Shown: in pieces, positions 12,174-29,857 of the stretch
Layout: each line of letters opens with the position of its first letter
Position numbering within the stretch: position 1 is the first letter of the stretch
DNA from: Geobacter sp.
GTDB taxonomy: Bacteria; Myxococcota_A; UBA9160; JADFDR01
Direction: 5' to 3'
Assembly (NCBI GenBank): GCA_018262735.1
Contig: JADFDR010000002.1
Coordinates: forward strand, 1 to 40,711
Length of the DNA: 40,711 nt
Notes under the pieces: generated by a model
Told to the model about the DNA's origin: nothing
Databases searched by the model: none
What the model saw: the letters and a program-made list of their open reading frames with translations, nothing else
Position numbers and translations under genes: made by a program

Positions 12174-12668
12174 ATGAAGAAGAAAGAATCCGGCTCGATC
12201 GACATCGAAACCTTTCGCGCGACGAACATTGGCCAGCCGCTGATGGAAGTCGCGAAAGATTTTCAACGCCGCGCGCTCGCGAAGTTTTACGAGCGTGGCC
12301 ACGACGAGTTGCAACCGTCGCACCAAGCGGTGCTCGCCTACTTGCATGCTTCGGGCACACGGCTCACGGAACTCGCGGAACTCGCCGGAATGAGCAAGCA
12401 GGCCATGGGGCAGCTCGTCGATGAAATCGAGCGCTTGGGTTACGTCGAGCGCGTGCCCGACCCGAGCGACGGACGGGCCAAGATCGTACGCTTTACGGTG
12501 TCGGGCAAGAAGTTGATTCGCGACGGCACCAAGATCGCGAGCGAAATCCAAGAGCAATATACGGCGCTGATCGGGGTGAAACGCTTCGAGCAATTGCGCG
12601 AAATCCTCGACGAGCTGCGCAGCAAAGCCAAAATGCTGCCGATCGGCGATGAGGTTGGAGAGAAATAA
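12174..12668 (+). CDS. MarR-family transcriptional regulator
   Basis: Winged-helix segment LTELAELAGMSKQAMGQLVDEIERLGYVERVPDPSDGRAKIVRFT. Start set to ATG 12174; the track ORF begins at 12042. The stop overlaps the next gene as TAATG. Confidence 0.85.
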   Translation: MKKKESGSIDIETFRATNIGQPLMEVAKDFQRRALAKFYERGHDELQPSHQAVLAYLHASGTRLTELAELAGMSKQAMGQLVDEIERLGYVERVPDPSDGRAKIVRFTVSGKKLIRDGTKIASEIQEQYTALIGVKRFEQLREILDELRSKAKMLPIGDEVGEK

Positions 12669-13828: not shown

Positions 13829-14035
13829 CGCTACGGCTGCGCGAACGGCATGATCTCCGACGCTGCGCGGCCATGCTCACGCAGACGCGCCTCACGTCTT
13901 TGCATCTCTGCAGACACGCGCCAGGCGCTCCACGTCTTGGCCATCGCACGATGCACCCTACACGCGTGCACTTGCAGCTTCGCAGCGCACGGCGCGAAGC
14001 ACGGCGCACAAAATTTCATTCGTCACTTTTTTGTG

Positions 14036-15883
14036 TTATCCGCGAACCACCGGCAGAATCAAGCAGGATGGATGCGCGGCGTCGTGATGCACGTTTTGCT
14101 TGGCCTTGCGACGATCGCTCGCGCTCGCGCGCGCGATCTCGACTTTTGCATTGGGATTGCAATCGAACTTCGGAAAATTGCTGCTGCTCACTTCCAGACG
14201 CAAACGATGGCCGGGCAAAAAGACATACGCCGTATCGAGAAGCGAAATCGAAAGCGGCACGATCTCGCCCGGCGTGAGCCAAGCTTCGCGATCCATTCCG
14301 TTGCGATAGCGCGCACGCAAAATGCCTTCCGCCACCGGCGCGCAGTAGCCGTTCGCATCCACGTCGACGAGCTTCGCCGTAAAATCCGTGTCCGGTGCAT
14401 CGCTCGAAATCCAAAGCTCAAGCGAAACCGGGCCGGCGATGCGCAGTGCATCCTGCAAAACTTCGCTGCTATACACCAAAACGTCGTCGCGCATTTCGAC
14501 TTCGCTCTGATCGAGCACACCAGGCGAACCGAAGATCGGCGCCAGGCTTCGGCAACCGCGCGTCGGCACCGGGTCGCTCGGATCGTACACATAACGATCC
14601 ACCGTCTCGTCCGTCGGAGCACGGCGCGAAAGCTCGCCATTGCCCAGGCGCGTGTTGGCGCGACCTTGGCTGTGCAAGAAGAAATTTTCTTTGGCGTGCG
14701 ACGGCGGCCAGCTCGAAGTTTCGCGCCATTGATTTTCGCCCATCGAGAAGTAGCGCACGCGCGCCACGGCTTGCTGCACCGGTTGCGAGGCGTTTTCAGA
14801 TTTGAGCGCTTCGCCGCGCAAATACGGCTCGAAAAATTCCAGCACCAATTCACTCACACCCGCCGGCCCCGCCACGGCCTCCGGCCCGAACTCGCGCTCA
14901 CCTGCGGCCGTCGGACGAATGCTCATGTAGGTGATGTGATCCCACGGACCAAACACCAATCGGTGTGTATCGCGCACTTCGGAGCGTGGATGCTTCTTCA
15001 GACTTTCGTTCAAATCCAAGTGGCCTTGCAAAAAGCCGTCGTACCAACCTGCGATTTGCAACACGGGCACTTGGATCTCTGTGCAACGCGCCGCCACATC
15101 CACACTGCGCCAGAACTCATCGTACTTGGGATGATCGAGCCACTCGCGCCAAAACGGCGCGTGCTCAGCGTGCTCCGCGTCAGCACTGCAAGTCGCCGCG
15201 CTACAAAGTGCAGTGTTATCGCGAAGCGGAATCTCTCGCACGGCTTTCCAGGGATCTTTCGCCGCTGCCATCAACTTGCCAAACGCTTGCAATCGCTCGG
15301 CCTCCGGAAGCCGCAACGCACGATCCCAAGCCAAATTGAGCGCCCACCAAAAATTGAAACCGAGTTCGAATGCGCCGCCGCTATACGCCCAGCCCGCGTG
15401 ATAGTTCGCGCCCGTCATGTAGGCAACGCAAGCCTTGAGATGGGGAGGCGCTGCGACGGCAGCTTGCAATGCAGTGACACCGTTGTAGGACGATCCGTAG
15501 ATGCCGACGTTGCCATTGCTCCACGGCTGCCTGGCCGCCCACTCGATGGTGTCGTAACCGTCGTTCCCTTCGCAGGCAAAGGGCTGCCATTCTCCCTCGG
15601 AAGCGAAACGTCCTCGTGTATCCTGCACGAGCACGACGTAACCGCGCTCGGCGGCAAGCAGCGGATTGAGCATCAAGCCGCCGACGACCCAGGCATCACT
15701 TTTGTTGTAGGGAGTGCGGTGCACGAGTACGGGATGCTGCGTTTTCGCCTGCGTGGCACCCCGCGCAGAATCCCATGCTTCCTTCGCGCAAGAATCGGCG
15801 GGTCGGTAGATGTCCGTCGCAAGCTTGACGCCGTCCCGCATCGAGACCATCACATCGCGCTCAACGGTAATCGCTCGGCTCAT
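14036..15883 (-). CDS. CocE/NonD family hydrolase (S15 X-Pro dipeptidyl-peptidase fold)
   Basis: MRDGVKLATDIYRP, LVHRTPYNK and the nucleophile elbow GIYGSSYNG. 615 aa. GGAGG lies 5 nt upstream of ATG 15883. Confidence 0.88.
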   Translation of the reverse strand: MSRAITVERDVMVSMRDGVKLATDIYRPADSCAKEAWDSARGATQAKTQHPVLVHRTPYNKSDAWVVGGLMLNPLLAAERGYVVLVQDTRGRFASEGEWQPFACEGNDGYDTIEWAARQPWSNGNVGIYGSSYNGVTALQAAVAAPPHLKACVAYMTGANYHAGWAYSGGAFELGFNFWWALNLAWDRALRLPEAERLQAFGKLMAAAKDPWKAVREIPLRDNTALCSAATCSADAEHAEHAPFWREWLDHPKYDEFWRSVDVAARCTEIQVPVLQIAGWYDGFLQGHLDLNESLKKHPRSEVRDTHRLVFGPWDHITYMSIRPTAAGEREFGPEAVAGPAGVSELVLEFFEPYLRGEALKSENASQPVQQAVARVRYFSMGENQWRETSSWPPSHAKENFFLHSQGRANTRLGNGELSRRAPTDETVDRYVYDPSDPVPTRGCRSLAPIFGSPGVLDQSEVEMRDDVLVYSSEVLQDALRIAGPVSLELWISSDAPDTDFTAKLVDVDANGYCAPVAEGILRARYRNGMDREAWLTPGEIVPLSISLLDTAYVFLPGHRLRLEVSSSNFPKFDCNPNAKVEIARASASDRRKAKQNVHHDAAHPSCLILPVVRG

Positions 15884-15935
15884 TCAAGCCTCCGCCTTGC
15901 CCGCGGATCGCGTCGGCGCTCTGACTCGCCGATCT

Positions 15936-15952
15936 TCAAGCGACTCGCTTGA
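15936..15952. promoter_or_regulatory. 17-bp palindrome TCAAGCG-ACT-CGCTTGA, candidate operator upstream of the CocE/NonD gene
   Basis: Perfect 7-bp arms, 53-69 nt upstream of ATG 15883. Confidence 0.3.
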
Positions 15953-15968
15953 TCGATTTGCTTGCGAT

Positions 15969-16003
15969 GTAGGCTCTGCGGCAGGACGCGCTGCAGAGCC
16001 TAC
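15969..16003 (-). terminator. GC-rich hairpin just downstream of the nitronate-monooxygenase-family gene
   Basis: GTAGGCTCTGC (15969-15979) pairs perfectly with GCAGAGCCTAC (15993-16003). It starts 10 nt after the stop at 16013. No clear U-tract follows. Confidence 0.4.
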
Positions 16004-16012
16004 ACCAAAGAG

Positions 16013-17113
16013 TTATTCGTCTTCGCCGCAGATCTGATCGAAGACTTCGTAAGCCTCTTCGACCATGTCGAGCACGATCTGACGCGCGGGTTTCATTGAC
16101 GTCACGAAATCCACACCTTGGCCAGCGGCTTCGGTCATGAAATCCGGCATGTTCCAGTCGATCGCCGATTGCTTCACATCTGCGAAGAGCAGCAATTGAT
16201 ACGGAGCCGGAGCCGGTCGCGGCGCATCCGGGCGCTCCCACTCTTCATGCCACTTACACTTTAATGTGCGCATCGTGAAGCCCGAGATGCAGTTCGAATA
16301 CGCCGTGTCGGTGGCCTTCGCCGCAAGCAATTTCTCTTTGATGATCATGTCGACGTCGGACTCGCGCGACGGAAGCCAAACCGTTCCCGTCCACACACCT
16401 TGCGCGCCGAGCGCGATCGCGCCGGCCAAGTGACGCCCGGTGGTGACACCGCCGCCCGCGATCACCGGCGTATCGCCCGCAATCGCCACGACTTGCGGCA
16501 CGATCGAAAACGTACCGATCGGACCGGTGTGACCCGCGGCATCGTTGCCTTGCGCGATCACCGCATCGACGCCCGCTTCAATTTCGCGTTGCGCTTGGCG
16601 CGGTTTTCCGACGAGACCCCAAACCTTCATGCCTCGTGCGTGCGCGGCGTCGAGCACGAACGCCGGATTTCCAAGACCCGAGGCAAGCACGGGAACATTG
16701 TTCTCGAGTACGACTTCGAGTTGGCGGCGCGGCGTTTCTTTGTTTACCCAACCGAGGTCATAGAGTTCGGGAGTTTTCTTCGGCGCGGGAATGTTGTGGC
16801 GCTTCTTCATCTCTTCCACAAATTTGCGTTGGGCTTCGGGAATCTGCGCCTTCAAATCGTCGATCGAACCGACGGCCGGCACCGAGGCCGGAAAAACCAA
16901 GTCGATGCCGAACGGCTTCGAACCCACCTTCTCGCGCAACCACTTGATGTCCGCCTCGATTTCTTCGGGCGAATGTTGCGTTTCACCGAGCACTGCAAAA
17001 CCACCGGCGTTGATCACCGCAGCAGCGACGTCTTTGCAATGCGTAAAAGCAATGATGGGATATTCGATACCGAGCTCTTGCACGAGCCGTGTCTTCAGCG
17101 GGTCTTTGGCCAC
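16013..17113 (-). CDS. nitronate monooxygenase / 2-nitropropane dioxygenase (FabK-like) family flavoenzyme
   Basis: LGIEYPIIAFTHCKD and GVDAVIAQGNDAAGHTGPIGTFSIVPQVV. Start set to GTG 17113 with AAGGAG 6 nt upstream; the track start is 17203. Confidence 0.85.
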   Translation of the reverse strand: MAKDPLKTRLVQELGIEYPIIAFTHCKDVAAAVINAGGFAVLGETQHSPEEIEADIKWLREKVGSKPFGIDLVFPASVPAVGSIDDLKAQIPEAQRKFVEEMKKRHNIPAPKKTPELYDLGWVNKETPRRQLEVVLENNVPVLASGLGNPAFVLDAAHARGMKVWGLVGKPRQAQREIEAGVDAVIAQGNDAAGHTGPIGTFSIVPQVVAIAGDTPVIAGGGVTTGRHLAGAIALGAQGVWTGTVWLPSRESDVDMIIKEKLLAAKATDTAYSNCISGFTMRTLKCKWHEEWERPDAPRPAPAPYQLLLFADVKQSAIDWNMPDFMTEAAGQGVDFVTSMKPARQIVLDMVEEAYEVFDQICGEDE

Positions 17114-17275
17114 GTTCTTCTCCTTCGGAAATTTGCAATTTGCGGATTGGATTGGGTCGCGAAGCGACGCCCCGCGACTCGATGTCCGCGCGAACTTTGC
17201 CATCGGCGCGCCGGGGCGGCAAGCGTTGGCAGGTCAAAACGCGGGCGAGCGAATCATCGCATCGAATCCAAATCG

Positions 17276-17290
17276 GTCAAGGGGCCTGAC
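17276..17290. promoter_or_regulatory. operator-like motif GTCAAG-GGG-CCTGAC
   Basis: Same arms as the two sites at 20167 and 20204. Lies in the divergent region between the NMO-family gene and the second CoA-transferase pair. Confidence 0.35.
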
Positions 17291-17627
17291 TATTTTGCGC
17301 AACTGAGCTATGGACTCGAAACGGCGCGCCACGCAAGCCGCACCGAAGGCAAGTCGCCTGCGTTTTTGCTCACGAAGGGTGAGAATGCGCGGTGGAAATC
17401 ATGGTGAAAAGCATGATGAAAAGGGATGGCAAGTGCGAAGAGCCCTTGTGCGACTTGAAGTGCATGAATCCAAGGCACGAATTTGCGCCACGCAAACAAA
17501 GAGCGAGTCGCCAGCAAACCGGAACGCGCAGGCCCTGGCGCACGAAAACCGAAAGGCTTCCGAGGAAGAGCGTCAAAACGGGGCGGCACAAAACATCCAT
17601 TCGCGCATGTCGCGAACGAGGAGTTTC

Positions 17628-18944
17628 ATGGACGGCGCACTCACCGGAATCCGCGTAATCGAACTTGGCGAAGGCATTTCCGCTGCCTTTGCCGCGAAAC
17701 TTTTTGCGGACTACGACGCGGAAGTCATCAAAGTCGAATTGCCGCGCTCGCCTTGCGCAAGCGATCCGACGGAAACACACGATGCGGGCAACGTCGCGCA
17801 ACCCGCCGACGTTTCGCGACTGGGCGACGTCACGCGAAGCTGGGGACCGTTTCCAGGCGACGTGCCCGATCCCGAAAAAAGCGGCGCCTTCTTTTTCTTG
17901 AACACGAACAAGCGCGGTCTCGCGCTCGACTTCACTTGCGACAAAGGGCGCGAACTTTTGCTTCGCCTCATCGCCGAAGCCGACGTGCTCATTGAAAACT
18001 TTTCGCCACGACAAATGCGCGAATGGAAGCTCGACTGGGCGACGCTCGAAAAAATCAATCCAAAACTCGTGATGATTTCCATTACGCCGTTCGGTCAGAC
18101 CGGCCCGTACGCCGACTGGAAAGGCTACGACCTGAATGCGTTTCATCTTTCGGCGACGGGCACGCGCTACTGCGGTGTGCCCGACCAAGCGCCGCTCGAG
18201 CACGGCACCTTTTCCGCCGAATTTTTCGGGGCCTACTGTGCCGTAACCTGGGGACTGGCGGCGGTGATCGGCCGCGACTTGGTGGCGCAAGATGACGCAG
18301 AGAATGAAAAAAGTGGGGGTGGCCAACACATCGACGTGTCATGCGCCGAAACCGTGGCCGCACTCTTCGTCGGAGCGCAAAACATCGGGGGCTATGCCCA
18401 GGACGGAAAATCAGGAACACGAACGGGTGTCGGAATGCCGCTCGCCGCGCCTGCCACGATCATTCCCTGCCAAGACGGCTACGTGTGGATGATGGCGCTT
18501 GAAACCGGGCAGTGGCACGGGCTCGTGCGCGCGATGGGCAATCCCGATTGGGCGCAGCTCGATCTCTTCGACGATATGTTCGAACGCGCTCAAAACTCCG
18601 ACATGATTTATGCCTTCCTCTACGAGTGGGCCGCGGCGCACACCAAGCAGGAGATCATGGATTTGTGTCAGGCGAACGGTTGCCCAACCACGGCGGTGTT
18701 TACGGTCGCCGAGGCCGGCGAACACCCGCACCTGCGCGAGCGCAACTACCTCCGCGAGATCGCCCACGCCGCACTCGGCACCGTGCGCACCTTCGGCGCG
18801 CCAGTGCATCTCACGGCGTGCCCCGGCGGAGCGACGGCACCGGCGCCGCTCTTCGGCGAACACAACGCTGAAATTTTGGGTGTGCGGCTCGGCTTGTCGG
18901 TTGCAGAACAGTCTACACTTCGAAGCGTAGGAGTGATCGCATGA
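17628..18944 (+). CDS. family III CoA-transferase, Asp-containing subunit (A2, paralog of A1)
   Basis: LTGIRVIELGEGISAAFAAKLFADYDAEVIKVE and FGQTGPYADWKGYDLNAF. Start set to ATG 17628 (GAGGAG 4 nt upstream); the track ORF from 17310 adds a non-coding-looking extension. By eye roughly two-thirds identical to A1. Confidence 0.87.
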   Translation: MDGALTGIRVIELGEGISAAFAAKLFADYDAEVIKVELPRSPCASDPTETHDAGNVAQPADVSRLGDVTRSWGPFPGDVPDPEKSGAFFFLNTNKRGLALDFTCDKGRELLLRLIAEADVLIENFSPRQMREWKLDWATLEKINPKLVMISITPFGQTGPYADWKGYDLNAFHLSATGTRYCGVPDQAPLEHGTFSAEFFGAYCAVTWGLAAVIGRDLVAQDDAENEKSGGGQHIDVSCAETVAALFVGAQNIGGYAQDGKSGTRTGVGMPLAAPATIIPCQDGYVWMMALETGQWHGLVRAMGNPDWAQLDLFDDMFERAQNSDMIYAFLYEWAAAHTKQEIMDLCQANGCPTTAVFTVAEAGEHPHLRERNYLREIAHAALGTVRTFGAPVHLTACPGGATAPAPLFGEHNAEILGVRLGLSVAEQSTLRSVGVIA

Positions 18945-20161
18945 GCAAAGCTCTTCCCTTGCAAGGCCTGCGCGTGGCGAATTTCGGTTGGGGCTGGCTC
19001 GGACCGGTCGCCGGACAAACGCTCGGCTTTCTCGGCGCCGAGGTCTACAAGATCGAGTCGCACGCGCGCGTCGACATCAATCGCACCTTGCCGCCGTTTG
19101 CCGAAGGCAAGCGTGACTTCGATCGAAGTTTGCAAAACCACGCCGGCTGGGCCGGCAACGGCAGCGTGACGATCAATCTCAAAAAAACGGCCGGCCAAGC
19201 ACTCGCACGCGAACTCGTCGCGAAGTGCGACGTGGTGCTCGAAAACTTCGGCCCCGGCGTGATGGACAAGCTCGGCCTTGGCTACTCGGAATTGTGTAAG
19301 GTGCGGCCGGATGTGATCTTGGTTTCGATGCCCGCTGCAGGACTCACGGGGCCACTGCGCCACGTGCGCACCTACGGCATGAGTCTGAGCAGCATCACGG
19401 GGCTCGATAGTCTCACCGGCTATGTCGATGGCCCACCGATACCGATGGAAAACGCATACGCCGATCCGCTCGGTGGCATCATCGGTGCGTTCGCGGCGCT
19501 GCTCGCATTGCGCTTTCGCAAGCGAACCGGCAAAGGTCAACTCGTCGATCTCTCGCAACAAGAAGGCATCTTGCAAATGGTCGGCCCGGCCTGGATGGAT
19601 TACGCCTTCAACGGTCGCGTAGCCAAGCCGATCGGCAATCGCCATCCGCTCTCCGTCGGTGCGCCACACGGCGTGTTCCCGTGCGTGGGCGACGATCGCT
19701 GGATCAGCATCGCAGTGCTCTGCGAAGCGGAATGGCATGGTTTGGTGGCGGCAATGAAGTCGCCCGCGTGGGCCACGGCGGTGGAATTTTCGTCGTCACA
19801 AAAACGTGTCGCAAACATCGAAGCGCTTCATCAAAAAATCGCAGAGTGGACGCGCGGGTTCGACAACCAAGAATTGGCAGCGTTACTCCAGACGCACGGT
19901 GTCGCCGCCGCGCCGGTGCTTGCAGTGGCCGACTTGCTCTCCAATCCGCAACTCCAAGCGCGCAACACGTTCATGGAAGTCACACATCCACTCGGCTTTC
20001 GCGAAACGATCTACGGCGCTTATGTGAAGACGAGCCGCACCGAGCCGCGCATCACGCCCGGCCCGGCGATGGGCTGCGACAACGAGCACGTCTTTCGTTC
20101 GCTTCTGGGCCGTTCGGAAGTGGATTACCAACAGCTCGTGCACGACGAAGTGATCTTTTGA
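18941..20161 (+). CDS. family III CoA-transferase-like subunit lacking the canonical Asp (B2, paralog of B1)
   Basis: LRVANFGWGWLGPVAGQTLGFLGAEVYKIE. The loop reads GLTGPLRHVRTYGMSL, with no Asp. ATGA overlap with A2, and AGGAG 7 nt upstream. Confidence 0.87.
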   Translation: MSKALPLQGLRVANFGWGWLGPVAGQTLGFLGAEVYKIESHARVDINRTLPPFAEGKRDFDRSLQNHAGWAGNGSVTINLKKTAGQALARELVAKCDVVLENFGPGVMDKLGLGYSELCKVRPDVILVSMPAAGLTGPLRHVRTYGMSLSSITGLDSLTGYVDGPPIPMENAYADPLGGIIGAFAALLALRFRKRTGKGQLVDLSQQEGILQMVGPAWMDYAFNGRVAKPIGNRHPLSVGAPHGVFPCVGDDRWISIAVLCEAEWHGLVAAMKSPAWATAVEFSSSQKRVANIEALHQKIAEWTRGFDNQELAALLQTHGVAAAPVLAVADLLSNPQLQARNTFMEVTHPLGFRETIYGAYVKTSRTEPRITPGPAMGCDNEHVFRSLLGRSEVDYQQLVHDEVIF

Positions 20162-20164
20162 AGA

Positions 20165-20220
20165 TTGTCAGGTTTCTTGACGAACATGGAACCCCTCGGT
20201 AAGGTCAAGTTTCCTGACAA
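20165..20220 (+). promoter_or_regulatory. paired palindromic sites (or interrupted hairpin) overlapping a promoter-like TTGACG-17-TAAGGT
   Basis: GTCAGGTTTCTTGAC (20167-20181) and GTCAAGTTTCCTGAC (20204-20218) lie in inverted orientation. TTGACG (20177-20182), a 17-nt spacer and TAAGGT (20200-20205) sit between and over them. The element starts 4 nt after the B2 stop. Confidence 0.4.
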
Positions 20221-20345
20221 AACGGCTCTGCCGCAGCAAGCGACACCAAAAAGAGACACTTGAAGAACTTGTGCAGGCAAGCTGGCAACCTTGCTTTGTG
20301 CGACGCACAGAGAACAAACGCGCGCGCCGGCGACACGACTCGCGC

Positions 20346-20389
20346 GGGCTGCGAAAGCGCGGGTTGCAAAGAAAGGGCTGCGAAAGCGC
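20346..20389 (+). repeat. two perfect 15-bp direct repeats GGGCTGCGAAAGCGC, 29-nt period
   Basis: 20346-20360 and 20375-20389, read directly. They lie 50-95 nt upstream of the thiolase-like gene start. Confidence 0.8.
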
Positions 20390-20439
20390 ACGGCTTTTCT
20401 ACAGCAACCAAGGCACGCAAGCAGACGGAGGAGATGGAA

Positions 20440-21609
20440 ATGGGTTCTTTCAAAAATCAAGCCTGTATCGTCGGTATCGGGCAGACGAAATACTCGCGCG
20501 GTCCCGGGACCGGCAAAACGGATTTGAGCCTGCAGCTCGAAGCCTCGATCGCGGCGCTCGACGATGCGGGCCTCCAACGAAGCGACATCGACGGTGTGCT
20601 GCCCTTCGTTTGTCTCGGCATCGCCGAAGAATTTGCGGTGCATCTCGGCATCGAAGATCTCCGTTACCAATCCACTTCCCATCTGGGCGGCGCAGCGCCC
20701 GGAGCTTCGCTCGCCAACGCCGCAATGGCCGTGACGGCGGGACTCGCAGACACCATTCTGATTCCGGGTGGTTGGTACGGCTTTTCGGGACGACGCGTGC
20801 GCGAAGTCGTCGTGGCCGACACCACCGTCATGTCGGGCGGCCCGACGGCGCGCGATTTTTATTTTCCATTCGGTCTGACCGCACCGCCGCAATGGTTTTC
20901 GTTTATCGCTCGCCGACACATGCATGAGTATGGTACGAAATCGGAACAACTCGGCGCGATCGCGGTCGCGCAGCGCAAGCACGCGCAACTCAACCCTCAC
21001 GCACTGACGCGCGGCAAGGAACTCACACTCGAGAAGTATCTCTCATCGGCGGTGATCTCCGATCCGTATCGCCTTTTCGATTGCTCACTCGAAGCCGACG
21101 GTGCAGCAGCCTTCATCGTGACCACCGCCGAGCGCGCGCGCGATCTCAAGCAAAAGCCGATCTATGTGATGAGCGTGACGCAAGGTCAACCCTATCCCGC
21201 AGACGATCTCGTAACCCGCGACGATGTGTTCCAACTCGGACTCACCTCGGCGGCGCCGCGCGCGTTTGCGATGGCCGGCGTCACGCACGACGACATCGAC
21301 TTCGCGCAAATCTACGATCCGTTCACGTTCCAAGTTTTGCAGCAGATCGAAGAGCTGGGTTTCTGCAAACGCGGCGAAGGTGGCGCATTCGTCGAGGGTG
21401 GCCGCATCGAACTCGGTGGCAAACTGCCCGTGAACACGCACGGCGGACTTCTCTCCGAAGCGCATGTGCTCGGCATGAACCACTTCGTGGAAGCCGTGCG
21501 GCAACTTCGCGGCGAGGCCGGTGAGCGCCAAGTGCAAGACGCCGAGATCGGGCTCGTGACCGGCTTTGGCGATTTCGGAGATGGCAGCATCGCCATCTTG
21601 CGTCGTTAA
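20440..21609 (+). CDS. thiolase-superfamily (SCP2-type) protein lacking the nucleophilic Cys (T1)
   Basis: ACIVGIGQTKYSRG, LFDCSLEADGAAA and NTHGGLLSEAHVLGMNH. The position of the thiolase xxACxSG nucleophile reads HLGGAAPGASL. Start set to ATG 20440 (GGAGGAG 6 nt upstream). Confidence 0.85.
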   Translation: MGSFKNQACIVGIGQTKYSRGPGTGKTDLSLQLEASIAALDDAGLQRSDIDGVLPFVCLGIAEEFAVHLGIEDLRYQSTSHLGGAAPGASLANAAMAVTAGLADTILIPGGWYGFSGRRVREVVVADTTVMSGGPTARDFYFPFGLTAPPQWFSFIARRHMHEYGTKSEQLGAIAVAQRKHAQLNPHALTRGKELTLEKYLSSAVISDPYRLFDCSLEADGAAAFIVTTAERARDLKQKPIYVMSVTQGQPYPADDLVTRDDVFQLGLTSAAPRAFAMAGVTHDDIDFAQIYDPFTFQVLQQIEELGFCKRGEGGAFVEGGRIELGGKLPVNTHGGLLSEAHVLGMNHFVEAVRQLRGEAGERQVQDAEIGLVTGFGDFGDGSIAILRR

Positions 21610-21636
21610 CACTTTTTTGAGTAGAACGAGGGAATC

Positions 21637-22059
21637 ATGAGCGAACAATCCTATGCGAAACCATTGCCGCTGATGCGCGGCTCCACGAAAGAATTTTACG
21701 ATCACTGCAAAAACGGAGAGCTGCGCTTTCAGCGCTGCACGGATTGCGGCAAATGGCGGCACGTGCCGCGCGAGATGTGTGCGAAGTGCGGTTCGTGGAA
21801 CTGGGAATGGGCGCGCTCGTCGGGGCGCGGCGAAGTGTTCACCTGGACCGTCGTGCAGCGCGCGATGCATCCTGCATTCCCGGGTGACGTGCCCTATGCG
21901 CCGGCCATCATCCAAATGCAGGAAGGTGTGCGACTCGTGAGCTGGGTCGCCGATTGTCCGCCGGAAGAACTCAAAATGGGCATGCCGGTGGAAGTGATCT
22001 TCGAGCGTGTTACCGACGAAGTCACGCTGCCGAAGTTCAAGCGCGCGGCAAAACGCTGA
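21637..22059 (+). CDS. DUF35 Zn-ribbon / OB-fold protein (D1)
   Basis: 140 aa with a four-Cys ribbon (RCTDCGKWRHVPREMCAKCGS) followed by an OB-like tail. Lies 27 nt after T1. Confidence 0.88.
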   Translation: MSEQSYAKPLPLMRGSTKEFYDHCKNGELRFQRCTDCGKWRHVPREMCAKCGSWNWEWARSSGRGEVFTWTVVQRAMHPAFPGDVPYAPAIIQMQEGVRLVSWVADCPPEELKMGMPVEVIFERVTDEVTLPKFKRAAKR

Positions 22060-22149
22060 GCGCGGTCGCACGCAACTTGCGGCTCAAATCGATTCGCAAG
22101 TTTTTGTGACGCAAATTTGTTTCGATGATTTCATCTCGGGGAGTAGTGC

Positions 22150-22908
22150 ATGGCCATTCAAGAATTTTTGTACGAAAAGCGCGATCACATCGCGATCATG
22201 ACTTTCAATCGCCCGGAGCAAAGCAATTGTTTCACGGCAGAGATGATCGACGAACTCTATGCTTGCTTCGATGACTTCAACGCCGATCCCGATCTTTGGG
22301 TGGCGATCCTCGCCGGCAACGGCAAGAACTGGTGTGCGGGCGGCGACCTCGAATCACTGATTCCGGCGATCAACTCCGGCCGCTACAAAATCAACGAAGA
22401 TCCGACGAAGCGCGTCTACAGCGATATTTTCAAACCAATCATCACCGCCGTGAATGGCTTTGCGACGCTCGAACTGGTGCTCGGCGCCGATCTCTGCGTC
22501 GCCGGCGAAGGTGCGCGCTTTGCACTCGGCGAAGTGCGCTGGGGCATGATTCCGGCGGGCGGTTCGCACATTCGCCTGCCGCGCGCCGTGCCGTGGGCAA
22601 TCGCAATGGAACTCTTGCTCACCGGCGGTTCGATCGACGCCAAGCGCGCCTACGACGTCGGCCTCATAAACCGATTGGTGTCACCCGATCAGGTGTTCCC
22701 GGAAGCGCTGAAGATCGCCGAGGCGATTTGCAAGAATGGGCCGCTCGCGGTGCAAACCGCCAAAGAAATCGCAGTGCGCGCCTGGGAACACGAGCGTGGC
22801 TTCGTGCTCGAAAACGCGCTCTTTCAACGCGTGAGCCGCTCCGAAGACGCCGCCGAAGGGCCACGCGCCTACCAAGAAAAACGTAAGCCTGTGTTCAAAG
22901 GACGCTAA
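22150..22908 (+). CDS. enoyl-CoA hydratase/isomerase family protein (E1), divergent active-site loop
   Basis: HIAIMTFNRPEQSNCF, WCAGGDL and GEVRWGMIPAGGSHIRLPR. GGGGAG lies 6 nt upstream of ATG 22150. The GG oxyanion loop is shortened (NGFATLEL). Confidence 0.87.
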   Translation: MAIQEFLYEKRDHIAIMTFNRPEQSNCFTAEMIDELYACFDDFNADPDLWVAILAGNGKNWCAGGDLESLIPAINSGRYKINEDPTKRVYSDIFKPIITAVNGFATLELVLGADLCVAGEGARFALGEVRWGMIPAGGSHIRLPRAVPWAIAMELLLTGGSIDAKRAYDVGLINRLVSPDQVFPEALKIAEAICKNGPLAVQTAKEIAVRAWEHERGFVLENALFQRVSRSEDAAEGPRAYQEKRKPVFKGR

Positions 22909-22911
22909 GCG

Positions 22912-23376
22912 ATGCCCCATCATCCCGAGCTGCAGCGCTTGATGGATCTCGAAGCGATTCGCGATCTGGTGCACCGCTACGCGCATTACGTTTGGCAAAA
23001 AGACATGCCGCGCATGATCGATCTCTTCCGCGACGATGGCCGCATGGCCGTCGACACGCAGCCAGCGCTTTGTGGCCGCGCCGCTTTGCTCGAATTCTAC
23101 GGCCAGATGCGCAACGACTCGGAGTTCTTGCCCTTCGTACACAATCATGTGATCGATCTCGAAGGCGATCGCGCCACCGGCACTTGCTACATCGATCTGC
23201 GCGCCACGATCGGCGGCCGCAGCATGATCGGCTCGGGATACTACGACGACGTGTACGTGCGCAGCGCGCCCGGCGCCGAAGGCTGGCGGTTTTTATCCCG
23301 CCACCTGCACATGCGGTATTTGGTTCCGATCACCCAAGGCTGGGCCGAAACGCAACGCGATCCCTCGGCGCGCTGA
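22912..23376 (+). CDS. NTF2-like / SnoaL-family protein
   Basis: 154 aa. LEAIRDLVHRYAHYVWQKDMPRMIDLF is typical of SnoaL_4-type proteins. Lies 3 nt after E1. Confidence 0.7.
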   Translation: MPHHPELQRLMDLEAIRDLVHRYAHYVWQKDMPRMIDLFRDDGRMAVDTQPALCGRAALLEFYGQMRNDSEFLPFVHNHVIDLEGDRATGTCYIDLRATIGGRSMIGSGYYDDVYVRSAPGAEGWRFLSRHLHMRYLVPITQGWAETQRDPSAR

Positions 23377-23462
23377 ACGCGTTGCTACGAAAATAGCTGC
23401 TCCACTCGCGGAAAACTCAATGCGAAGGCGCCTCGGATCCATTTCATTTCCCGCAAATCAGG

Positions 23463-23492
23463 GTTGATGTTTTCCGTCGGTGGAATATCAAC
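23463..23492. terminator. hairpin between convergent genes (candidate bidirectional terminator)
   Basis: GTTGAT (23463-23468) pairs with ATCAAC (23487-23492), and the stem extends with A-T and G-T pairs. It sits between the NTF2-like stop (23376) and the FTR1 stop (23573). Confidence 0.3.
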
Positions 23493-23572
23493 TCGTCTTT
23501 CGAAAGTAGGATGAATCGGAGGCTCCCTACGTTTTCGCGCGTGGAGCAGATGCTATTCGCTACACAAAAAAG

Positions 23573-25831
23573 TTATGCTTGTTTTTGCGGTGCAGCCGGC
23601 TTGAACGCAATCACCGCGAAGGCCACGAGCGCCGCCACGATCAAGAGCAACTGCGCCAGCGCAGTTTCGAGATTCGACGCCATGCCAAGCCAAGAAAATC
23701 CGGGCCACCACGACACCGGCGTTGCGTGAATCCATCCGGCTTCTTGCAACTCGACAATACCGCCACCGACGAAACGCAAGGCAAGCACGTAGAGCAACGC
23801 CCCGGTGCACGCAAAGAACGGGCGTAGCGGAATCTTCATGCTAAAGCGCAAGACACCGATCCACACCACGACCAACGCGAGACAACCCAGCACAAGACCC
23901 AAGAGAACTGCGCCCGTCGAACTCGCACCTCCCATCAAGGCACGGTAAAACAAGACGGTTTCGAAACCTTCGCGGTAAACGGCAAGGAAAGCCACGCTAA
24001 CCATCGCGAAGCGTGAACCCGAGCCAAGTGCATGATTGAGCTGCTTTTGGATATACGCTTGCCAGCGTTGCGCACTGATTCGCGAAAGCAGCCAATAGCT
24101 CACAAAGAACAAAATGACGGCCGCAAGCAACATGGTGACACCTTCAAGTGCCTCCTTGGCCATACCTACGTTGCGAAGTGCAAATTCAAAAATTCCGGCT
24201 GTGACGAAGCTCGCAACCACACCGCCAAGCGCACCTTCAAAGAGCCAGCGTCGCGCTGCGAGATGTCCGCCTTTCAAAAGATATGCGGCCAGCGCGCTGA
24301 TCACCAAGATCGCTTCGAGACCTTCGCGCAAAATGATCAAGAGCGACGCAATCAAACTACCGACGAAGCCGGTCTTTCCCGCCAGCAACTCTTCCGCCTT
24401 TTGGAGATCCGTGCGAATCTTTTCAAACTCTGCCGAAGCATCTTGCCGTTTTGACACTTTTGCGCGTAATGCGACGAATTGCGCTTCGAGCGCCTTCCCG
24501 AACGATTGGTCGATCGTGATCAATTTCTTCTCGACGGCCTCGAAGGCCATGTAGGCGCTGAGAACCTTGGAGGCCGCTTGATCCGGCGAAGCCTCGGCTT
24601 GAGACCGTGCTTCCTCGAGAATTTGGATCACGCGTTCGACCGCGCTGCCCTTTTCCTCTTTTTCAATACCGAGATCTGCTTGCAACAATTGGCGTAGTTC
24701 GGCCGCACGCATCTCGACTTCGTTCGGCTCGCGCTTCGCGTAAATCATTTCTCCAACTTCTTTTACGAGATCGGAAATTTCCGCGTTCTGAAGTTTTCCG
24801 ACGGAAAACCCCGCCTCGATGTCTCCCTGAAGTGTGCCCAAAAAGAGTCGTGTTTCGCCGTACTCGATCTTGTTCGCGACTTCCCCGCTTTGAACTGCGT
24901 CTTTGTACTCTTGCAGCAACAAATCGAGCGCCAAAAACATATGATGCGTGTCGAATGCCTGAACCTGATCGTCGCCTTCTCTCTGTGCGACGAAGGCAAT
25001 CTGCCTTGCCAAGCGTGCGGTTTCCGTCGCGTTGGCACGATGCGCTTCGATGGCAGCCAAACGCTGCGTTAGACCGGCATCCGAAAGATCGAAAGCCGCT
25101 GTGGCACGTTCTTGTGTATGGCAACTCGAACAGCGGTTGAACTCGGCAGGATCGGCCGATGCACCCGACGCGAGCGACCAGAGGAAAGCCACCGTGTCCC
25201 AGCGCTCCTGCGCCGTTAACACTTCGTCCCACGGAGGCATGGCCGAACCCGGAACGCCAATCGAGAGCACTTGGAAAAACTCTTCCGGCGTTTCGTTCTG
25301 CATGAATTCAACATCGATAAAATTGGCAGGCTTTGGGTCTTCGATTTCTGCGGCAAGTGGCCCCTGCCCGTCGCCCTGCTCCCCGTGACACGACGTGCAG
25401 TAGCGCGCAAAGAGTTTGCGACCTACTGCAATCGACGGTGTGCGCTCGGGTTTTTCGGAAACGATTCCCGCACCGTGCGCTTCGAGCCATTCCGCAAACA
25501 CTTCTTCGAGTCGTTTTACCTCCGCTCGTTCTGCAACGAGACTGCGAATTTTGGTCAACTCCTCCGAGGGAGCACCTTCTTCGAGTTCGGTGAGGATTGC
25601 TTCCGTGACCGCAAGCTCGCCCGCATCGACAACGACGCCACCTTGCACACTCTCACCATATTCTTGAATGGCGAGTTTCAGCATTTGATATTGGCGCTGC
25701 GGCGAAAGCTCGCTCTCGTGTGTATCCGAATGCGCAAAGCTTGTTTCGGGAAAGGCCCAAAGCAGCAAAGCGCACAACACGAGAATGTGTCGCAAAAAAG
25801 AAATGGCGCGGGCAGAAAACAAACTCAACAT
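23573..25831 (-). CDS. cytochrome c - FTR1/EfeU-family iron permease fusion
   Basis: Signal peptide MLSLFSARAISFLRHILVLCALLLWAFPETSFA. Two CXXCH sites (CTSCH, CSSCH). C-terminal permease with two REGxE motifs (REGLEAIL, REGFETVL). Start set to ATG 25831 (GAGGAG 6 nt upstream). Confidence 0.88.
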   Translation of the reverse strand: MLSLFSARAISFLRHILVLCALLLWAFPETSFAHSDTHESELSPQRQYQMLKLAIQEYGESVQGGVVVDAGELAVTEAILTELEEGAPSEELTKIRSLVAERAEVKRLEEVFAEWLEAHGAGIVSEKPERTPSIAVGRKLFARYCTSCHGEQGDGQGPLAAEIEDPKPANFIDVEFMQNETPEEFFQVLSIGVPGSAMPPWDEVLTAQERWDTVAFLWSLASGASADPAEFNRCSSCHTQERATAAFDLSDAGLTQRLAAIEAHRANATETARLARQIAFVAQREGDDQVQAFDTHHMFLALDLLLQEYKDAVQSGEVANKIEYGETRLFLGTLQGDIEAGFSVGKLQNAEISDLVKEVGEMIYAKREPNEVEMRAAELRQLLQADLGIEKEEKGSAVERVIQILEEARSQAEASPDQAASKVLSAYMAFEAVEKKLITIDQSFGKALEAQFVALRAKVSKRQDASAEFEKIRTDLQKAEELLAGKTGFVGSLIASLLIILREGLEAILVISALAAYLLKGGHLAARRWLFEGALGGVVASFVTAGIFEFALRNVGMAKEALEGVTMLLAAVILFFVSYWLLSRISAQRWQAYIQKQLNHALGSGSRFAMVSVAFLAVYREGFETVLFYRALMGGASSTGAVLLGLVLGCLALVVVWIGVLRFSMKIPLRPFFACTGALLYVLALRFVGGGIVELQEAGWIHATPVSWWPGFSWLGMASNLETALAQLLLIVAALVAFAVIAFKPAAPQKQA

Positions 25832-26211: not shown

Positions 26212-26389
26212 AGATGCATTGCCGCCAAACGAGAAAAAGTGAACCGAAGCCAACAGAAAATGCAGAGCAGATCGCAAGCCAGATTGATTGCCGCCAAACG
26301 AGAAAAAGTGAACCGAAGCCAACAGAAAATGCAGAGCAGATCGCAAGCCAGATTGATTGCCGTCAAATGAGAAAAATTGAACCGAAGCC
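26212..26389 (+). repeat. 69-bp tandem repeat, two perfect copies plus a degenerate 31-nt third copy
   Basis: Units at 26221-26289 and 26290-26358 are identical. 26359-26389 matches the first 31 nt with 3 mismatches and runs straight into the RBS (GAGG) of the LLM gene. Confidence 0.9.
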
Positions 26390-26399
26390 GAGGTGTCCG

Positions 26400-27263
26400 A
26401 TGAAATTTGGAATTTTTCTACCCTATGGAATGGCTCCGATCGAAGATCCCGAGTATGCGACCGCCTTCGCAAAGCTCGCCGAAGAATTTGACTTCGAATC
26501 CATTTGGGTGGTCGAGCATGTGGTGATGCTCGTCGAGTACGCGTCGATCTACCCGTACGACCCGAGCGGCCGTTCGCCGTTTGCGAGCGATGTCGCGCAA
26601 CCCGATCCGCTGATTTGGCTCAGTTTTATCGCCGCCGCGACCAAGCGCATTCGCCTCGCAACGGGCGTGCTCGTGCTCCCCCAACGCAACCCGCTGATCC
26701 TCGCCAAGGAACTGGCGAGCCTCGATCGGCTCTCGGGCGGGCGGCTCGAAATCGGCATCGGGATGGGCTGGGTCAAAGAAGAAGCCGAGGCGCTCGGCAC
26801 TTGTTTTGAAAACCGCGGGCGGCGCGCCGACGAATACATCGACGTAATGCGCGCACTTTGGCGCGAGCCCGTGACCACGTTCAACGGCGAATTCGTGCGC
26901 TTCCACGGCGCGGTCTCGCGACCCAAACCCGTGCAAAAGAATGGCGTACCGATCGTGATCGGCGGCCACAGCCGCGCGGCTGCAAAACGTGCCGGTCGCA
27001 TCGGCGACGGATTTTTTCCGCTCGGTGCAGCCCCCAATGAGCTCGCCGCTCTTTGCGAAACAATGCGCGAATCGGCACGCAAACATGGCCGCGACCCCGC
27101 GCAAATCGAAGTCACTTGCGTGGGCTTGCCGGATCTCGCCTCGGCGGAGTTTTACGCGGAACGTGGCGTGCAGCGCGTGGTAGTCTCGCCCAAGCTGCGA
27201 GAGCTTTCCGAACTGCAAAAATTTTTGGAGGGATTCAAAAAAAATGTCATGGAAAAATTCTAA
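26400..27263 (+). CDS. LLM-class F420/flavin-dependent oxidoreductase
   Basis: MKFGIFLPYG, FESIWVVEHV, LATGVLVLPQRNPL and GRLEIGIGMGW. Start set to ATG 26400 (GAGG 6 nt upstream); the track ORF starts at 26214 inside the repeat. Confidence 0.88.
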   Translation: MKFGIFLPYGMAPIEDPEYATAFAKLAEEFDFESIWVVEHVVMLVEYASIYPYDPSGRSPFASDVAQPDPLIWLSFIAAATKRIRLATGVLVLPQRNPLILAKELASLDRLSGGRLEIGIGMGWVKEEAEALGTCFENRGRRADEYIDVMRALWREPVTTFNGEFVRFHGAVSRPKPVQKNGVPIVIGGHSRAAAKRAGRIGDGFFPLGAAPNELAALCETMRESARKHGRDPAQIEVTCVGLPDLASAEFYAERGVQRVVVSPKLRELSELQKFLEGFKKNVMEKF

Positions 27264-27883: not shown

Positions 27884-29857
27884 CTACGCGTTGGGCAACT
27901 TCTCTGCGATGAGTTCGGCGATGTCGAAGACCTTGCGCTCGTCGGTGCTCTTCTTCACACCGTCAGTGAGCATGAGCAAGCAGAACGGACAGGCCGTCGC
28001 GATCTTGTCGGCGCCGGTCTGCAGCGCTTCTTTCGCGCGCACATCGTTGATGCGCTCGCCGCCCGCGCCGCCCCAGTAGTTGCCTCCGCCCGCGCCGCAG
28101 CAGAAGCTGTCTTTCTTGTTGCGCGGCATTTCGACGAGTTCTCCGACGGAAGAGACCACTTGGCGCGGCCCATCGATCACATCGTTGTGTCGGGCGAGAT
28201 AGCAAGGATCGTGGAAGGTGATCTTTTCACTTCCTGCAATTTTCGGAATCTTCCCCGCAGCGATCAATTGATCGAGCAGCACAGCATGCGGCACGATTTC
28301 GTAATTGCCGCCGAGTTCCGGGTAGTAACGATCGAAGCTGTTGAAGCAATGCGCGCACATGGTGATCATCTTGGTCACGCCGATTTCGGAAAATTCCTCG
28401 ACGTTGGTCGATGCCATTTCCTGGAACAGAATCTCGTTGCCCATCTGCTTCGCCGGATCGCCGGTGCAGCGCGCTTGTTCGAGAATCCCGAATGAAACTT
28501 TTGCGTGTTGGAGGAGCTTCACCATCGCCCGCGCAACGGATTGCGCGCGCTCTTCGTACGTGATCGCACAGCCGATCCAAAGCAAGTATTCCGTCACACC
28601 TTTTTCGAAGAACGGCACATCGAGACCCTGACGCCACGCATCGGGGCTTGCGCTGGTGCCGACGAACGGATGCTCGCGGGTTTCGAGATTCTTGTTCGCG
28701 TGGCTCATGATCTCCGGAAGTTCCGAGCGCTCCATGACGAAGTGGCGGCGCATTTCGACAATGGCTTCGGGATGGCGAATGCTCACCGGGCAGGCTTCCA
28801 TGCAAGCGCCGCAGGTGACACAGTTAAATGTCGCTTCGAAACCCACGGCATCGAGAAACGACTCGTCCTCAAACTTGCCTTCGCGCAAATACTCGGCTGC
28901 CGTCACGATGATGCTCTTGGGTTTGAGCGGCTTGCCGGTTTGCGTCGCCGGACAGACTTCATTGCAGCGTCCGCACCACACGCATGCCAGAAAATCGAAA
29001 CGCGCCTTCGGCGTAAAATCGGCAAGCTTCGCTACACCAAGCGGTGGCGGATTTTCGCTTTCAAGCGCGTCAAAGTCGATCGGGCGCAGTTGCACACCGG
29101 GCTTGCGCCGCGCGAGTGCCGCGTTGATCGGAGCAAGCAACATATGCGCAAGCGGCGAATGCGCGATCGTCGAAATAAGCACGAGCCCAGCCAATCCGTG
29201 CATCCACCAAAACAAACGAAAACTACGCAATGCTGTGTCGGCAGTTACTTCGCCGAACTGATTCGACAAAAAATTGCCGACGAACATCCCCGCATGCGCT
29301 CCTTCGTAGGCAATGCGAAACCCTTCCGTCGTAAAACCCAAGCCGATGACGACGAGAAAGAACGCCTCGAGCGCCACAAATCCACGGCGCGCTTTGCCTT
29401 CGAGAAGACGCACCGGCGGAAACACCAAACGTCGCACCATGAAGAAGAGCAAACCCAACAAGACCAAAACGCCTGCAAGGTTGCGACCAAGCGCCATGAA
29501 CCAATAACCGAAGGCGCCCCCGAACACGTCGACACCGACGAACGAGAGCGGATACACCGCATGACCGAGGATCAAGACGATCGAACCGAAGAACACCATC
29601 GCGTGTGCGATCCCCGATGCGGGGCGTTTGAAAAGCCGCGACGTAAGCACGCCACGCTGAAAAAATGCGGCAAGGTTCAGGGCATCCTTTTGCATGAGTA
29701 ACGCAAGCATCGACTTCACGACATCGAGCGAAAAAGACTTGCCCGGATTGGTGAGTTTCCAGCTTCGCACGAGCCCATACACCAAAATGCCAAGCGCAAG
29801 ATGAATCAAAAGTGTCAAGATGACGTAGTTCGATATCGGGATGGAATGATCCGCCAC
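27884..29857 (-). CDS. membrane-anchored Fe-S oxidoreductase: N-terminal multi-helix (NarI/DsrM-like) domain fused to an HdrD-like 2x[4Fe-4S] + CCG domain
   Basis: About 6 N-terminal TM helices with conserved-looking His. Ferredoxin motifs CVWCGRCNEVCP and CVTCGACMEACP. Cys-rich CCG-type segments (ARCTGDP, FCCGAGGG). GTG start at 29857. Confidence 0.85.
   Translation of the reverse strand: MADHSIPISNYVILTLLIHLALGILVYGLVRSWKLTNPGKSFSLDVVKSMLALLMQKDALNLAAFFQRGVLTSRLFKRPASGIAHAMVFFGSIVLILGHAVYPLSFVGVDVFGGAFGYWFMALGRNLAGVLVLLGLLFFMVRRLVFPPVRLLEGKARRGFVALEAFFLVVIGLGFTTEGFRIAYEGAHAGMFVGNFLSNQFGEVTADTALRSFRLFWWMHGLAGLVLISTIAHSPLAHMLLAPINAALARRKPGVQLRPIDFDALESENPPPLGVAKLADFTPKARFDFLACVWCGRCNEVCPATQTGKPLKPKSIIVTAAEYLREGKFEDESFLDAVGFEATFNCVTCGACMEACPVSIRHPEAIVEMRRHFVMERSELPEIMSHANKNLETREHPFVGTSASPDAWRQGLDVPFFEKGVTEYLLWIGCAITYEERAQSVARAMVKLLQHAKVSFGILEQARCTGDPAKQMGNEILFQEMASTNVEEFSEIGVTKMITMCAHCFNSFDRYYPELGGNYEIVPHAVLLDQLIAAGKIPKIAGSEKITFHDPCYLARHNDVIDGPRQVVSSVGELVEMPRNKKDSFCCGAGGGNYWGGAGGERINDVRAKEALQTGADKIATACPFCLLMLTDGVKKSTDERKVFDIAELIAEKLPNA

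Follow-up and report, generated by a model that had tools for sequence, protein, structure and literature searches.

A 40,711-nucleotide stretch of contig JADFDR010000002.1 from Geobacter sp. (assembly GCA_018262735.1), here called the window, contains three adjacent genes, T1, D1 and E1, which encode a thiolase-fold protein devoid of the thiolase cysteines, a stand-alone DUF35 protein and a crotonase, and whose products probably constitute a module for hydration and retro-aldol C-C cleavage of CoA thioesters. Such a hydratase and retro-aldolase pair had been proposed in an original prediction made from the letters of the DNA; the three open reading frames (ORFs) and their Pfam domains are as described there, and the predicted activity is supported by all the computational tests run, which drew on sequence comparisons and a structural model. 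For the clade formed by T1 and its paralogue T2 in the same window, we infer the activity from relatives. The general kind of system is already known, that is, a thiolase-fold retro-aldolase with a DUF35 partner acting after a hydratase. What is new relative to the literature found is the residue set of T1 (a tyrosine and a histidine, with no cysteine and no second tyrosine), the stand-alone DUF35 protein, a crotonase partner whose oxyanion turn is deleted, the surrounding operon, and the pairing of T1 with T2. Thiolase-fold aldolases resolve the stalling of beta-oxidation at tertiary alcohols, as arises with steroid C17 and with alicyclic and isoprenoid acids. To our knowledge, only two of them, Ltp2 and Sal, have been dissected so far, and these use differing acid residues.

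Why should T1 not be taken for an ordinary thiolase? SCP2 thiolases have a nucleophilic Cys and, within an HDCF motif, a second Cys that acts as acid/base (PMC12329534). T1, with the same length of 389 aa as its homologues, has neither. At the first site it reads HLGGAAPGASL, as had been noticed before, and in the alignment to solved structures Gly84 of this peptide falls on the nucleophilic Cys of archaeal thiolase 7YVY (AACASG), as it does on that of the Cys-containing homologues. The position is Gly in T1, in 120/120 close homologues, in Ltp2 and in Sal, and the alignment gave no correctly placed catalytic Cys. The original prediction had also pointed to the loss of a C-terminal CxGGG-type Cys. 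The peptide on which it relied, TGFGDFGDG, is indeed present, but in the SCP2/archaeal thiolase branch the second catalytic Cys sits in HDCF and not in the C-terminal CxG (PMC12329534), and it is this Cys whose absence matters: the motif is YDPF in T1 (Tyr292-Asp293-Pro294-Phe295), with His changed to Tyr and Cys to Pro, while Ltp2 has YDHF and Sal YDCY. Gly84, Tyr292, Asp293, Phe295 and His342 are invariant among the 120 close homologues. Position 294 varies, with Pro in 74 of them and Cys in 46; it alternates between Pro and Cys even inside the T1 subclade, whose Binatia member at locus L011 (L numbers denote the compared loci) has Cys there, and therefore the residue looks dispensable within this subclade.

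The original prediction had weighed two characterised systems, the steroid side-chain aldolase Ltp2-ChsH2 and the benzoylsuccinyl-CoA thiolase BbsAB, in favour of the former, and this preference was borne out. Among all PDB sequences, T1 is closest to the Ltp2 aldolase of Thermomonospora curvata (6OK1_A, 1.6e-74, 40% identity), followed by the uncharacterised 'thiolase' 4U4E of Sphaerobacter thermophilus (2.2e-68, 41%), and lower by the bile-acid side-chain aldolase Sal of Comamonas testosteroni (9MYR_A, 1.3e-47, 30%) and archaeal thiolase 7YVY (8.9e-47, 34%). Foldseek with an AlphaFold2 model of T1 (predicted local distance difference test, pLDDT, 76.6; predicted template-modelling score 0.84) also puts 6OK1 at the top (template-modelling score 0.87), then 4U4E and 9MYR, the latter at rank 4, with the thiolase subunit BbsB far lower in both searches. 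Ltp2 and T1 have in common the Gly at the nucleophile position, a YDxF motif with the base Tyr, the length of the loop around residue 342 (344 in Ltp2), and the segments PFGLxxPxQW and ARRxMHEYG. In a neighbour-joining tree of 83 homologous sequences, the Cys-containing thiolases all lie outside a Cys-less superclade of Sal, Ltp2, 4U4E and T1 plus T2, in which T1 and T2 form a well separated clade near the Ltp2 group. A wider motif sample gave the same division: true thiolases have ACAS, HDCF and GHP, while the Cys-less clade, to which T1 and both characterised aldolases belong, has GG and YDxF. By its sequence, T1 is thus a member of the Cys-less superclade that is an orthologue of neither Ltp2 nor Sal. 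Orthology to Ltp2 was ruled out by the missing acid Tyr344, by the separate clade, and by a score of 355.5 bits, below the cutoff of 469, with PRK07855 (NF005892), the best-matching lipid-transfer-protein model of NCBIfam. Two other members of the superclade, 4U4E and TbSLP (5AB4-7), likewise have no Cys at the nucleophile position and have YDxF, and 4U4E even has His at the 342 position (YDSF and THPG), but they differ from T1 in the loop length at 342 and belong to other clades. The T1 clade is abundant in metagenomes, with at least 7992 proteins at E <= 1e-20 among 8000 candidates scored.

If T1 cleaves C-C bonds, which residues would do the work? In Ltp2 the base is Tyr294 of YDHF, the acid is Tyr344, and His296 lies in the oxyanion hole; in Sal the base is Tyr302, the acid is Cys304 of YDCY, and a Gln stands at the position of Ltp2 Tyr344 (PMC12329534). 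The search for tyrosine catalysts suggested in the original prediction was half successful, in that the Tyr serving as base in both aldolases is invariant in the T1 clade as Tyr292, whereas the second Tyr of Ltp2 is replaced by the invariant His342 (Gln352 in Sal). His342 aligns with the His of the GHP motif in 7YVY, although the surrounding loop is shorter and resembles that of Ltp2: LSEAH in T1 and LGEAY in Ltp2 are of equal length, and the thiolase loop, GHPxGATG, is different. The GHP His of thiolases assists stabilisation of the thioester enolate. Because His342 is aligned with this ancestral oxyanion-hole His and at the same time occupies the place of the Ltp2 acid Tyr344, it is the obvious candidate for stabilising and protonating an enolate in T1.

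The product of D1 consists of a Cys4 zinc ribbon (CxxC...CxxC at C34, C37, C48 and C51; Pfam zf-ChsH2, 4.5e-11) and a C-terminal OB fold (OB_ChsH2_C, the former DUF35, 2.1e-21). Like T1, it is nearest to the aldolase systems: its best PDB matches are the aldolase-bound DUF35 domains 6OK1_B (2.4e-23) and 9MYR_B (6.7e-22), as against 6e-3 for BbsA. The D gene is without exception directly downstream of the T gene in related loci; in the window the gap between T1 and D1 is 27 nt, and that between D1 and E1 is 90 nt. By analogy with the aldolase complexes, D1 would be the structural partner of T1. It is to be noted that the architecture is not the same. In the Ltp2 system the DUF35 domain forms the C-terminus of a MaoC-type hydratase subunit, and that of Sal, in Shy, is fused to a MaoC hydratase and has a Cys3His zinc site, while D1 is a separate gene with a Cys4 site. 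The hydratase of the module belongs to the crotonases, with a deletion in the oxyanion turn that is rare among them, and is not a MaoC protein fused to DUF35. The T1 operon is also non-igr-type, unlike that of Ltp2. Once a hydratase has acted, Ltp2 and its DUF35 partner split a tertiary-alcohol 3-hydroxyacyl-CoA (PMC12329534), and T1-D1-E1 would resemble them in this.

E1 is predicted to be an enoyl-CoA hydratase. Its top NCBIfam family is EchA19, the cholesterol side-chain hydratase (247 bits, below the cutoff of 400), and its PDB matches include 3TRR and the EchA19 structures 4F47/6WYI. Both catalytic Glu of hydratases, which we take to correspond to Glu144 and Glu164 of rat enoyl-CoA hydratase, are present, and the Glu of LELV and of GEVRWG are kept in all E1 and E2 orthologues, E2 being the crotonase partner of T2. 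However, the Gly-rich oxyanion turn, which comes just before the first Glu and gives one oxyanion-hole amide in canonical crotonases (Gly141 of the rat enzyme), is shorter by three residues in E1 (AVNGFAT---LELV). The deletion is kept in 12/12 E1 orthologues adjoining T1-type genes, while E2-type partners of T2-type genes retain the turn as IAGG, and it co-varies with the change of Cys294 to Pro in T1. As it is conserved in 12 independent loci, an assembly error was ruled out as its source. In a scan covering 1.84 billion cluster representatives, the turn was intact in 148 of the 150 nearest crotonase representatives, and of the two bearing the deletion one, P0241, represents the cluster of E1 itself. 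The other, P0272, is a separate cluster, 41% identical, with a similar deletion (AVQGFA---NIELIQA).

The three genes do not travel alone. The conserved cluster around them, here module 1, has the order MarR regulator, racemase-like gene, S15 hydrolase, FabK-like oxidoreductase (these last two on the opposite strand), two CoA-transferase genes, T1, D1, E1 and a SnoaL_4 gene, and the set recurs at 60-75% identity in metagenome-assembled genomes (MAGs) labelled Binatia, Myxococcales, Delta- and Gammaproteobacteria, the closest genome being 95% identical and labelled 'uncultured Geobacter sp.'. Because the synteny of T, D and E, at 60-75% amino-acid identity, is shared by over 20 MAG loci of various lineages, the arrangement is not due to chance. 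The two CoA-transferase genes overlap by 4 nt and are syntenic upstream of T1 in other loci; orthologues of the second, 67-72% identical, are directly upstream of T1 in 10 loci. In L081 (6954-9401) and L083 (7359-9797) the pair is fused into a single ORF of 812-815 aa, which argues that the two proteins of the window are subunits of one heteromeric enzyme. The racemase-like protein matches Far and MCR of M. tuberculosis at ~1e-65 and retains the equivalents of MCR His126 (GHDLNY) and Asp156 (ADFAGG); none of the other four CoA-transferase family proteins of the window has the GHD.NY motif, and racemase orthologues at 60% identity or more are found in T1-type loci only. The FabK-like flavoprotein is the sole redox enzyme of module 1, with orthologues at 71-92% in seven T1-type loci. 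The plausible ORFs of the window that are 200 aa or longer, the scope of every absence of a dehydrogenase reported here, contain no 3-hydroxyacyl-CoA dehydrogenase, short-chain dehydrogenase/reductase or acyl-CoA dehydrogenase domain, which for the first of the three agrees with the original prediction. A literature search for a cluster of thiolase-like, DUF35, crotonase and CoA-transferase genes returned steroid reviews only and no description of such a cluster.

How might these proteins work together? An organic acid would first be turned into its CoA ester by the BbsEF-like pair of CoA-transferases, after which the racemase-like enzyme would set the C2 configuration of an alpha-methyl-branched ester. 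E1 would then hydrate the 2-enoyl-CoA to the 3-hydroxyacyl-CoA, and T1, in complex with D1, would break the bond between C-alpha and C-beta with no covalent intermediate: Tyr292 may deprotonate the beta-hydroxyl, like Tyr294 of Ltp2 and Tyr302 of Sal, and the resulting thioester enolate would be stabilised and then protonated, most probably by His342. Cleavage would be expected to release acetyl- or propionyl-CoA as the short acyl-CoA, together with a ketone or an aldehyde. The substrate is probably an acyl-CoA whose beta-carbon turns into a tertiary alcohol on hydration and therefore does not allow oxidation to a 3-oxo group; alicyclic or isoprenoid acids would fit. It is likely alpha-methyl-branched, so that propionyl-CoA would be released as with Ltp2.

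Several points weigh against this scheme. Both known aldolase acids are missing in T1, that of Ltp2 being His342 (for Tyr344) and that of Sal being Pro294 (for Cys304), and Pro294 also takes the place of the oxyanion-hole residue His296 of Ltp2; in Sal, the change of Cys304 to His gives an inactive variant (PMC12329534). The active-site loops 206-217 and 334-342 of the T1 model have pLDDT below 50. The Cys-less superclade also includes TbSLP and 4U4E, to which no function is assigned. The hydratase activity of E1 is not assured, given the loss of the oxyanion-supplying turn, and the window has no acyl-CoA dehydrogenase to supply the enoyl-CoA. Might T1, then, be no aldolase at all? It might serve, without catalysis of its own, as a scaffold or a subunit that binds lipid, or could catalyse another reaction of a CoA-ester enolate, such as decarboxylation, isomerisation or hydrolysis, with E1 doing the main chemistry. 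The loss of both acids speaks for this, and some crotonases, e.g. HCHL, do carry out hydration and retro-aldol cleavage alone. A further point on that side is TbSLP of the same superclade, in which very weak malonyl-CoA decarboxylase activity is the only one reported (PMC12329534). Nevertheless, homologues of T1 at 66-76% identity have 84 invariant positions, among them the active-site residues Tyr292, Asp293, His342 and Asn332, a pattern typical of enzymes; the best NCBIfam family of E1 is the EchA19-type hydratase, HCHL not being among the best 25 of its 70 matching families, so that E1 was rejected as an HCHL-type hydratase-lyase; and the pairing of T with D is the same as in the aldolase complexes. 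We therefore hold a non-aldolase T1 to be unlikely.

The opposite suspicion, that T1-D1 is after all a true thiolase of the BbsAB type (PDB 7PXP) that cleaves a 3-oxoacyl-CoA by CoA-dependent thiolysis, within a beta-oxidation like that of bbs, arises from a gene set with a superficial likeness to bbs: a two-subunit family III CoA-transferase like BbsEF, a thiolase-fold protein with a DUF35 protein, and a crotonase, to which the retention of the GHP-position His as His342 may be added. BbsB, however, is a true thiolase with the catalytic Cys and is distant from T1, with just a partial match of 3.7e-30 (7PXP_C), a Foldseek rank of 30 or lower at 22-24% identity, and an NCBIfam score of 107 bits against a cutoff of 750, and no counterpart of the dehydrogenase BbsCD or of the acyl-CoA dehydrogenase BbsG is found in the window. 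With both Cys residues missing, this explanation was rejected and can be regarded as essentially excluded. A further alternative is that the module serves synthesis. Aldol reactions can go either way, the only redox enzyme conserved with the module is most like enoyl reductases (FabK), which as a rule reduce C=C bonds and do not form them, and aldol addition of an acyl-CoA enolate to an aldehyde or ketone by T1-D1, followed by dehydration by E1 and reduction of the enoyl-CoA by the FabK-like protein, would be a complete and coherent cycle of chain extension that needs no ketoreductase, matching the absence of 3-hydroxyacyl-CoA and acyl-CoA dehydrogenases. Yet the surroundings look catabolic: besides several CoA-transferases and the racemase-like gene, a MarR regulator and a hydrolase of the esterase type are present, and they include no carrier-protein, tailoring-enzyme or export genes; moreover, both characterised relatives, Ltp2 and Sal, are catabolic, and T2 lies in a cluster of degradation type (PMC11780191). 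A synthetic role thus seems quite improbable, and cleavage by T1-D1 after hydration by E1 is the function that we favour.

Table 1. Genes of modules 1 and 2 and further genes of the window (positions are those of the window; L numbers, compared loci)
Feature	Position	Strand	Details
Crotonase, further copy	6900-7772	-	
Luciferase-like monooxygenase	7807-8874	-	
Family III CoA-transferases, second pair	9196-10572 and 10600-11835		
MarR-family regulator, upstream of racemase-like gene	12042-12668	+	Pfam MarR_2; syntenic in L001, L008, L010
Alpha-methylacyl-CoA racemase-like protein, CoA-transferase III fold	12668-13828	+	PDB racemases 2G04, 1X74, ~1e-65
S15 (CocE/NonD-type) alpha/beta hydrolase, possible esterase	14036-15883	-	Pfam Peptidase_S15 7.7e-62, PepX_C
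NMO/FabK-like FMN (flavin mononucleotide) oxidoreductase, divergent	16013-17203	-	Pfam NMO; NCBIfam FabK 1e-48, below cutoff; PDB FabK 5GVJ 5e-39
Family III CoA-transferase, first gene of pair	17631-18944	+	Pfam CoA_transf_3 1.1e-85; start codon uncertain
Family III CoA-transferase, second gene of pair, BbsEF-like	18941-20161	+	PDB 9FN0_B (benzylsuccinate CoA-transferase subunit) 2.4e-55
T1, Cys-less thiolase-fold protein, putative retro-aldolase catalytic subunit	20440-21609	+	389 aa; Pfam Thiolase_C_1 2.5e-48
D1, stand-alone DUF35 protein, predicted structural partner of T1	21637-22059	+	140 aa; Pfam zf-ChsH2, OB_ChsH2_C
E1, crotonase-fold predicted enoyl-CoA hydratase	22150-22908	+	252 aa; Pfam ECH_1 3.1e-50
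SnoaL_4 (NTF2-like) protein	22912-23376	+	3 nt downstream of E1; Pfam SnoaL_4 7.8e-21
BadI/MenB-like crotonase (C-C hydrolase type), T2 module	34296-35345	-	NCBIfam MenB 5.9e-69, BadI 2.3e-63, both below cutoff
E2, crotonase partner of T2	35368-36186	-	normal IAGG oxyanion turn; start codon uncertain
D2, stand-alone DUF35 partner of T2	36197-36622	-	
T2, T1 paralogue	36703-37863	-	70% identical to T1; YDCF motif, Gly at nucleophile position, same His342
Amidohydrolase_2 family protein	38025-39017	-	directly upstream of T2; Pfam Amidohydro_2; syntenic in L012, L014, L023
Molybdopterin-binding subunit, xanthine-oxidase family	39109-40695	-	cut off by window end; Pfam MoCoBD_1, MoCoBD_2; syntenic in L012, L014, L023

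As to the remaining genes of module 1 (Table 1), the S15 hydrolase recurs in L083, and its position is conserved in L001, L005, L007-L009 and L016. A 700-aa ORF on the + strand at 13850-15952, which overlaps it, was discarded as spurious, having no Pfam, NCBIfam or PDB match and no homologues. The SnoaL_4 gene is also near T1-type genes in L024, L081, L082 and L083. Sulfotransfer_3 genes lie within ~10 kb of the T1-type clusters on two unrelated contigs (L081, 19516-20682; L083, 14578-15777); the window, unlike these, has no sulfotransferase gene. A scan of 11800-23700 for promoters and terminators gave nothing above the shuffled expectation.

Module 1 has a paralogous counterpart in the window. 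Module 2 (34296-40695, - strand) consists of a molybdopterin-binding (MoCoBD) subunit, an amidohydrolase-2, T2, D2, E2 and a BadI/MenB-like crotonase. T2 keeps the Tyr/Cys dyad of Sal (YDCF, against YDCY in Sal). Clusters with two CoA-transferases, the BadI-like gene, T2, D2 and E2 in this order occur in MAGs of Sterolibacterium (L017, L021, L022) and Rhodocyclaceae. What could such a module degrade? Anaerobic degradation of steroid ring A, as Jacoby et al. (2025, PMC11780191) showed, uses a Mo enzyme (1-TDH) and SRAH, a ring hydrolase of the amidohydrolase-2 family. The later 2,3-seco steps need a CoA ligase or transferase, an acyl-CoA dehydrogenase, an acetate-releasing hydrolase, a hydratase and an acetyl-CoA-releasing aldolase, the last acting on the 5-hydroxy intermediate 5-OH-SDA-CoA, which by its name would be a tertiary alcohol; the genes for these steps, including those of the hydrolase, the hydratase and the aldolase, were unassigned in that study (PMC11780191). 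By gene composition, module 2 matches this list, and the link may serve as a lead. A homologue search meant to establish the amidohydrolase as an orthologue of SRAH (WP_154715975.1) gave, in its top 120 (322-330 aa), metagenomic proteins with no names only. Neither SRAH nor the Mo enzyme was found within ~8 kb of T2 in the Sterolibacterium MAG locus L017, which contains a luciferase-like monooxygenase, a CCG/Fe-S membrane protein, two CoA-transferases, the BadI-like gene and T2-D2-E2. A homologue of this membrane Fe-S protein (L017, 2396-4372, adjoining the T2-type cluster) is encoded in the window at 27884-29857 (-), with CCG, Fer4 and NarI-like domains, and may be a link of the electron transfer flavoprotein:quinone oxidoreductase type for acyl-CoA oxidation. 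EC 4.1.3.35, which we take to be (1-hydroxycyclohexan-1-yl)acetyl-CoA lyase, follows the same reaction logic as the predicted 2,3-seco aldolase: a cycloalkylidene-acetyl-CoA is hydrated to a tertiary alcohol, which is cleaved into a cyclic ketone and acetyl-CoA. We know of no sequence assigned to either activity, and the connection is more direct for T2 than for T1. As the racemase gene accompanies only T1-type genes and the Sal-type Cys has given way to Pro in T1, T1 and T2 may be likened to Ltp2 and Sal, which act on an alpha-methyl substrate with release of propionyl-CoA and with release of acetyl-CoA, respectively, a parallel that is plausible but weakly supported.

With five CoA_transf_3 genes and four crotonases, the window is a paralogue-rich catabolic region. 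A 69-bp tandem repeat of 2.5 copies with 97% identity (26218-26389) lies directly upstream of the likely true start (MKFGIF...) of a luciferase-like monooxygenase gene at 26214-27263. Unrelated neighbours in 489-5842 and 30520-34291 encode a PLD-like protein, a formate/nitrite transporter, a NirB-like nitrite reductase, a MobA-like nucleotidyltransferase and a hybrid PAS histidine kinase-response regulator.

A bolder proposal goes beyond hydration and cleavage, and in its full extent we regard it as doubtful. It might be that T1-D1-E1 is a third solution to retro-aldol cleavage on the thiolase fold, with a Tyr base and a His in place of the Tyr or Cys acid, which has co-evolved with a turn-deleted crotonase and is dedicated to alpha-methyl-branched acyl-CoAs that form tertiary alcohols and release propionyl-CoA and a cyclic or branched ketone, and that the T1/T2 clade gives sequences to orphan '(1-hydroxycycloalkyl)acyl-CoA lyase' activities including the missing ring-A aldolase, in a pathway that would be spread widely among uncultured members of Binatia, Myxococcota and related lineages. 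Whatever becomes of this proposal, the T1 clade, in which the base is kept, neither known acid is present and the partner hydratase is remodelled at its oxyanion hole, offers a direct test of how flexible the active site of these aldolases can be, and the T2 module provides specific candidate genes for three steps of the 2,3-seco pathway that were left unassigned, those of the hydrolase, the hydratase and the aldolase (PMC11780191). The T1 clade is also a candidate marker for the degradation of recalcitrant branched and alicyclic organic acids by uncultured bacteria of soils and sediments.

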